Assembly: GCF_036507355.1 (NCBI RefSeq)
Contig: NZ_AP027877.1
Reading direction: 5' to 3' (one strand)
DNA: 64,000 nucleotides
Source of the DNA: Escherichia coli
GTDB taxonomy: Bacteria; Pseudomonadota; Gammaproteobacteria; Enterobacterales; Enterobacteriaceae
The stretch's first letter is position 1; every line of letters begins with the position of its first letter. Position numbers and translations under genes: made by a program. Below, piece after piece: positions 51,890 to 52,188 of this stretch. The notes under the pieces are model-generated. The model did not search any database, had not been told where the DNA came from, and saw only the letters and a program-made list of their open reading frames with translations.

Positions 51890-51965
51890 TGGAGCGGGAA
51901 ACGAGACTCGAACTCGCGACCCCGACCTTGGCAAGGTCGTGCTCTACCAACTGAGCTATTCCCGC
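51890..51965 (-). tRNA. glyV/X/Y: tRNA-Gly (GCC), copy 1
   Basis: Minus strand reads GCGGGAATAGCTCAGTTGGTAGAGCACGACCTTGCCAAGGTCGGGGTCGCGAGTTCGAGTCTCGTTTCCCGCTCCA, 76 nt with encoded CCA. Confidence 0.97.
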
Positions 51966-52000
51966 TTGGGTGGTCTGTGCCTTACAGCACTTTCAAATTT

Positions 52001-52076
52001 TGGAGCGGGAAACGAGACTCGAACTCGCGACCCCGACCTTGGCAAGGTCGTGCTCTACCAACTGAGCTATTCCCGC
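52001..52076 (-). tRNA. glyV/X/Y: tRNA-Gly (GCC), copy 2
   Basis: Identical 76-nt sequence, 35-nt spacer from copy 1. Confidence 0.97.
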
Positions 52077-52112
52077 TTGGGTGGTCTGTGCTTTACAGCA
52101 CTTTTCAAATTT

Positions 52113-52188
52113 TGGAGCGGGAAACGAGACTCGAACTCGCGACCCCGACCTTGGCAAGGTCGTGCTCTACCAACTGAGCTATTCCCGC
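52113..52188 (-). tRNA. glyV/X/Y: tRNA-Gly (GCC), copy 3
   Basis: Identical 76-nt sequence, 36-nt spacer from copy 2. Confidence 0.97.

Follow-up and report, generated by a model that had tools for sequence, protein, structure and literature searches.

The locus considered here raises the question of whether a regular array of three repeats in a 64,000-nucleotide stretch of Escherichia coli DNA (hereafter the window) is a tRNA operon present in its true number of copies or a repeat of some other kind, and what its transcription would bring about in the adjoining sequence. With a probability of about 97%, the array is the E. coli glyV-glyX-glyY operon, transcribed from one promoter as a tricistronic precursor and followed by a weak terminator with read-through into the datA locus. 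No evidence contradicting the glyV-glyX-glyY identification was found. The operon is an already known housekeeping feature of essentially every E. coli genome; nothing about it is new, and its occurrence in the window leaves current understanding unchanged.

Three identical tRNA-Gly(GCC) genes between orn and queG

Exactly three tRNA genes are found by ARAGORN in the whole 64-kb window, all of them tRNA-Gly(GCC) on the minus strand, with the anticodon gcc at position 34 in 3/3 copies. Each copy scores 69.1 bits against the Rfam tRNA model RF00005 (gathering score 29) and covers the model in full (1-71), and a script comparison shows that the three 76-nt genes are identical to each other and all end in CCA. 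The original prediction, which read the array as three identical minus-strand tRNA-Gly(GCC) genes with encoded CCA, agrees with ARAGORN, Rfam and the sequence comparison; its identification holds in every detail, and only the locus name glyV-glyX-glyY and the adjoining datA were missing from it. The array is composed as follows.

52113-52188, minus strand: glyV, first tRNA-Gly(GCC), 76 nt, encoded CCA (ARAGORN; RF00005, 69.1 bits; identical to MG1655 glyV, b4163)
52077-52112, minus strand: glyV-glyX spacer, 36 nt, AAATTTGAAAAGTGCTGTAAAGCACAGACCACCCAA, with a 5-bp hairpin GUGCU/AGCAC and tetraloop GUAA (sequence, fold)
52001-52076, minus strand: glyX, second tRNA-Gly(GCC), same sequence as glyV (ARAGORN, RF00005, MG1655)
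51966-52000, minus strand: glyX-glyY spacer, 35 nt, AAATTTGAAAGTGCTGTAAGGCACAGACCACCCAA, with the same hairpin in a G-U closing variant (identical to MG1655)
51890-51965, minus strand: glyY, third tRNA-Gly(GCC), same sequence as glyV (ARAGORN, RF00005, MG1655)

The glycine identity elements recognized by E. coli GlyRS are U73, G1:C72, C2:G71, G3:C70, C35, and C36, all of which are present in the sequence GCGGGAA...UUCCCGC-U-CCA with anticodon GCC. The window tRNAs would be expected to be charged with glycine and to decode GGC and GGU, as documented for the identical MG1655 sequence (PMC7461829).

Tandem Repeats Finder reports a single array at 51888-52188 with a period of 111, 2.7 copies, 98% matches, and a score of 588. 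A regular period of 111-112 nt with short spacers might also suggest a CRISPR-like array, a minisatellite, or attachment sites duplicated by integrative elements. However, all of the repeats are full-length tRNAs with high scores (69.1 bits), the spacers are almost the same instead of being unique, orn and queG on either side are conserved housekeeping genes, and neither additional copies nor partial tRNA 3' halves were found within the window. CRISPR arrays consist of short repeats (∼23-47 nt) with unique spacers of similar length, whereas the repeats here are 76-nt tRNAs. The probability of any of these readings is vanishingly small, and three identical 76-mers cannot have arisen by chance. 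The periodic repeat is thus nothing exotic.

Open reading frames of at least 60 aa also cross the tRNA array.

51770-52177, plus strand: ORF of 135 aa (ORF list)
51864-52199, plus strand: ORF of 111 aa (ORF list)
52081-52296, plus strand: ORF of 71 aa (ORF list)

These frames, together with one of 54 aa on the minus strand, exist mechanically, but it is next to inconceivable that any of them encodes a real protein: they are composed of antisense tRNA sequence, no Pfam model reaches its cut-off (at best 15 bits against 26 and 14.5 against 22), and neither RefSeq nor MG1655 has an annotated CDS at the corresponding position. Three ORFs across the array had been called spurious from the sequence alone, a view with which these results concur. 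For annotation hygiene the ORFs over the array should be masked.

The neighbors of the array are those of the glyV-glyX-glyY operon in other E. coli genomes.

52399-52944, minus strand: orn (mapped in the window)
50481-51620, plus strand: queG (mapped in the window)
51603-51656, minus strand: yjeV, a putative 17-aa coding ORF that overlaps both the queG 3' end and two DnaA boxes of datA (annotation of MG1655 and RefSeq)

At homologous loci in RefSeq the order is orn, three tRNA-Gly genes, a 17-aa hypothetical protein, and queG, and a megablast search with 51500-52600 matched 5,425/5,426 complete E. coli genomes. In MG1655 the genes are named glyV, glyX, and glyY (b4163-b4165, 4392360-4392658), with orn upstream and datA, yjeV, and queG downstream as in the window, and both sequences have three identical 76-nt genes, 36- and 35-nt spacers, and the same promoter core, leader, and terminator. 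Over positions 51600-52400 (minus strand) the window differs from MG1655 by 5 substitutions in 800 nt (99.4% identity), one just past orn, three at or near an A/T tract upstream of the promoter, and one in the loop of the first spacer; none falls in the tRNAs, second spacer, leader, promoter core, terminator, or the sequence downstream to queG.

Copy number and variation of the array

Arrays of identical repeats can be collapsed or expanded during assembly, and copy-number variants do exist, among them a two-copy array (CP041110) and a range of 2-9 tRNA-Gly(GCC) places per genome. Nevertheless, MG1655 has three copies with identical 36/35-nt spacing, and a true copy number other than three in the window is very improbable. 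There are two differences between the window spacers, on the minus strand an A indel and an A/G change (equivalent to the T insertion and C/T change that had been described for these 35-36-nt spacers), so that the units are distinguishable and a mis-collapse is unlikely. The 76-nt tRNA query is present at ≥99% identity in 5425/5426 complete E. coli genomes, with 21,628 places in 5,425 genomes (mean 3.99, median 4, range 2-9); of 60 genomes sampled at even intervals, 59 have 4 copies and one has 5. The expected number for E. coli is 4, comprising glyV, glyX, glyY, and glyW, which lies elsewhere (PMC7461829). The copy-number comparison suggested together with the original prediction thus gives 3 copies in MG1655 and a mean of 3.99, glyW included, across the complete genomes, nearly all of which have three copies in the array; since three copies are the norm, the array in the window is not an assembly artefact.

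The two-copy array was observed in one complete genome, E. coli ECCTRSRTH03 (CP041110, locus L003, 1391-1577), in which one 111-112-nt unit is missing through either a deletion or a collapse in assembly; variation in copy number is thus rare. A more frequent variant, found in ∼30% of complete E. coli genomes, has a first spacer of 157 nt due to a 121-nt insertion located exactly between the normal first spacer and the glyX 5' end (AR437, CP029108, locus L002, 4190-4310). The insertion folds as a long imperfect palindrome (-37.2 kcal/mol), and at its center lie adjacent matches to the two standard ERIC primers (16/19 and 17/20). It occurs at ≥95% identity in 1,606 genomes, a number close to the 1,628 genomes that had no full-length megablast match; blastn detects no copy of it in the window. 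Variants of the AR437 type have three identical tRNA genes, and their flanks and second spacer are the same as those of the window. The ERIC-like insertion is a real polymorphism between strains, and the two-copy array is probably one as well; such differences need not be errors of assembly. First or second spacers of similar length (139-169 nt) were also observed at some Citrobacter, Pluralibacter, Kluyvera, Silvania, and Superficieibacter loci among the matches listed.

A scan for tandem junctions (tRNA-spacer-tRNA) in one genome per species yielded at least 120 loci from other species. As in the window, copies of this tRNA, identical or almost so, follow one another head to tail with short spacers in these Gammaproteobacteria, and three copies are commonest among the loci listed (61 loci), followed by two (36 loci). 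Among the matches listed, Enterobacterales arrays typically have three copies, as in the window, whereas Acinetobacter arrays mostly have 2, and Aeromonas arrays contain 5-7 identical tRNA-Gly(GCC) copies. At six Aeromonas loci (L009, L017, L022, L034, L058, and L084) two or three spacer types alternate along the array, a pattern suggestive of the duplication of blocks of several units.

Spacer length and sequence vary by genus, with lengths of 22-56 nt among the matches listed. In the listed Enterobacteriaceae, a genome usually has two almost identical spacers, whereas genera differ in spacer length and sequence. Over all loci listed, spacers have a median identity of 0.64 when compared within a genome and of 0.53 when compared between genomes; the heterogeneous Aeromonas arrays lower the former value. 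This pattern is the one expected from unequal recombination or gene conversion, either of which may keep copies and spacers alike and occasionally alter the copy number.

Promoter, precursor processing and the spacer hairpin

The elements upstream of glyV were read from the sequence, and the assignment of the hexamers and of the transcription start site is putative.

52246-52273, minus strand: operon promoter PglyV-X-Y (read from the sequence; core identical to MG1655)
52281-52300, minus strand: A/T tract AAACTCAAAAAAAATTTTTT upstream of the -35 element, resembling an UP element (role as UP element putative)
52273-52268, minus strand: probable -35 hexamer TTGCAG
52251-52246, minus strand: probable -10 hexamer TATAAT, 16 nt from the -35 element
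52245-52238, minus strand: GC-rich discriminator GCGCCTCC, directly after the -10 element (read from the sequence)
52189-52238, minus strand: 5' leader of the precursor, ∼50 nt, from the predicted start site to glyV +1, putatively removed by RNase P/RNase E

Stable-RNA promoters under growth-rate and stringent control typically combine a perfect -10 element and a GC-rich discriminator with a 16-nt spacer and an A/T tract farther upstream. The three MG1655 differences at or beside the A/T tract are located at 52296, 52286, and 52280. A consensus promoter and terminator scan detected neither the operon promoter nor the imperfect terminator, the promoter being absent from the scan because its -35 element matches only 3/6 positions. 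The existence and dominance of PglyV-X-Y in MG1655 are experimental findings, based on jumps in RNA level between flanking probes (PMC10950094). Transcription of orn largely ends ahead of the gly promoter (PMC10950094). A candidate orn terminator, a hairpin with a short U run just 3' of the orn stop codon, was observed at 52349-52388 (minus strand); its fold is no better than that of shuffled sequences (z -0.39).

A single promoter upstream of glyV would give rise to one precursor in which the ∼50-nt leader is followed by the three tRNAs with their two 35-36-nt spacers. Cleavage of this precursor by RNase E would take place within the spacers and downstream of them, a major site lying 1 nt past glyY, after which RNase P would generate the 5' ends and exonucleases would trim to the encoded CCA. 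Maturation of tRNA ends is completed by RNase P and 3' exonucleases, and CCA addition is not needed because CCA is encoded. In vitro, the major RNase E cut in the glyV-X-Y precursor occurs 1 nt after glyY and requires a single-stranded glyX-glyY spacer and the neighboring glyX tRNA (PMC4191395, PMC9841416), and an oligonucleotide that blocks this spacer lowers RNase E cleavage 3' of glyY (PMC4191395). Single-precursor transcription and RNase E processing, documented in MG1655, would be expected for the window as well, given that the sequence elements are identical.

Other E. coli operons, such as argX-hisR-leuT-proM and metT-leuW-glnUW-metU-glnVX, likewise express several tRNAs from one promoter and share direct entry by RNase E, dependent on single-stranded spacers and a neighboring tRNA (PMC4191395, PMC9841416). 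Whereas those operons mix tRNA species, glyV-X-Y repeats a single one and, unlike them, is joined to datA by read-through transcription (PMC10950094). Three tandem copies would triple the tRNA yield per transcription event and may thereby meet the demand of the two commonest glycine codons. In E. coli four identical GCC genes decode GGC and GGU, and deletion of glyV and glyX reduces translation of reporters rich in these codons (PMC7461829), an effect that supports gene dosage as the reason for tandem copies. The array is the source of most of the major glycine tRNA of the cell.

Each spacer contains a 5-bp hairpin closed by a GNRA tetraloop.

52088-52101, minus strand: hairpin of the glyV-glyX spacer (fold)
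51977-51990, minus strand: hairpin of the glyX-glyY spacer (fold)

The glyV-glyX spacer folds with -7.2 kcal/mol, and only 0.7% of shuffled sequences are equally stable. The one MG1655 difference in this spacer changes the loop from GCAA in MG1655 to GUAA in the window, both of which are GNRA. The minimum-energy fold of the full precursor mispairs adjacent identical tRNAs and is uninformative on the co-transcriptional fold; in the centroid structure only the spacer and terminator hairpins appear.

In 26 spacers of the same architecture from other Enterobacteriaceae, 15 different stems occur (for example GUGCU/AGCAC, GUAUC/GAUAC, GUGUC/GACAC, UGGCU/AGCCA, GGCC/GGCC, and AUGCC/GGCAU), the mean z relative to shuffled sequences is -2.1, and many of the loops are GNRA (GUAA, GCAA, GAAA). 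Because loop lengths vary, a MAFFT alignment of the spacers lost the register of the hairpin, and the stems were therefore tabulated from individual folds rather than by formal pair counts, a weaker procedure than a proper covariation test. With that reservation, the hairpin looks as though it has been kept across the Enterobacteriaceae by compensatory stem changes and loop changes that preserve the GNRA motif. It is possible, if rather doubtful, that the hairpin is a selected precursor element, such as an insulator that separates the folding of identical tRNAs or a guide to RNase E or RNase P. The hairpin is not essential, since it is absent in some genera with spacers of 23-27 nt. No characterization of it was found in the literature cited here on glyV-X-Y.

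Terminator, read-through and datA

Downstream of glyY the terminator overlaps the first DnaA box of datA, and the elements of both were located by folding and pattern search, the four DnaA-box matches having 0-1 mismatch each.

51830-51867, minus strand: terminator/attenuator TglyV-X-Y, overlapping datA DnaA box 1 (identical to MG1655)
51867-51840, minus strand: imperfect terminator hairpin CCACAGCGACGCGAUGCGUUAUUGCUGG (fold)
51839-51830, minus strand: tract after the hairpin UUUUUGUUGU (sequence)
51622-51871: datA locus, directly downstream of glyY and before queG (pattern search; 100% identical to MG1655)
51863-51871: DnaA-box match ATATCCACA, box 1 (numbering according to PMC10950094, PMC10380432)
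51796-51804: DnaA box TTATCCACA, perfect, box 2 (numbering according to PMC10950094, PMC10380432)
51727-51739: IHF site TATCAATAGGTTA, single, perfect consensus (pattern search)
51634-51642: DnaA-box match TTATTCACA, probably box 3 or 4
51622-51630: DnaA-box match TCATCCACA, probably box 3 or 4

The cluster that defines datA, consisting of DnaA boxes and one IHF site between the gly operon and queG, is thus present in the window, and the position of datA downstream of glyY has been described (PMC10950094, PMC10380432). The datA locus promotes hydrolysis of DnaA-bound ATP following replication initiation (PMC10380432). With a fold of -14.3 kcal/mol and z of -1.9, the terminator hairpin is only marginally more stable than shuffled sequences. 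This agrees with the literature, in which the terminator is described as an attenuator overlapping DnaA box 1 and permitting considerable read-through (Kasho et al., 2024; PMC10950094). In MG1655, transcription from PglyV-X-Y runs into datA and lowers IHF binding before initiation, and after initiation bound IHF blocks the glyV-X-Y read-through (Kasho et al., 2024; PMC10950094).

By this mechanism, a weak terminator past glyY would let part of transcription continue into datA, where read-through may displace IHF or prevent its binding and in this way time the inactivation of initiator DnaA by datA. Since the window is identical to MG1655 over the stretch from the terminator through datA, the read-through and IHF results obtained in MG1655 should apply to the window locus. 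According to this recent work, read-through couples tRNA production to the timing of chromosome replication via datA (PMC10950094). The tRNA array is ordinary in itself; it is the surrounding context that is functionally interesting, and this context is already described.

Two matches from a permissive Rfam search were rejected. YrlA (Y RNA-like), at 51913-52051 on the minus strand with 40.3 bits against a gathering score of 69, was discarded because its tRNA-like module aligns to parts of two tRNA copies and a spacer; ilvB-OMG, at 50089-50248 with 21.4 against 95.9, was dismissed as chance. Four further Rfam models match the window above their gathering scores.

7098-7220, minus strand: ES239 sRNA
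19434-19518, minus strand: RpsF leader
2452-2509, plus strand: STnc450 sRNA
2330-2372, plus strand: ES036 (CssrF) sRNA
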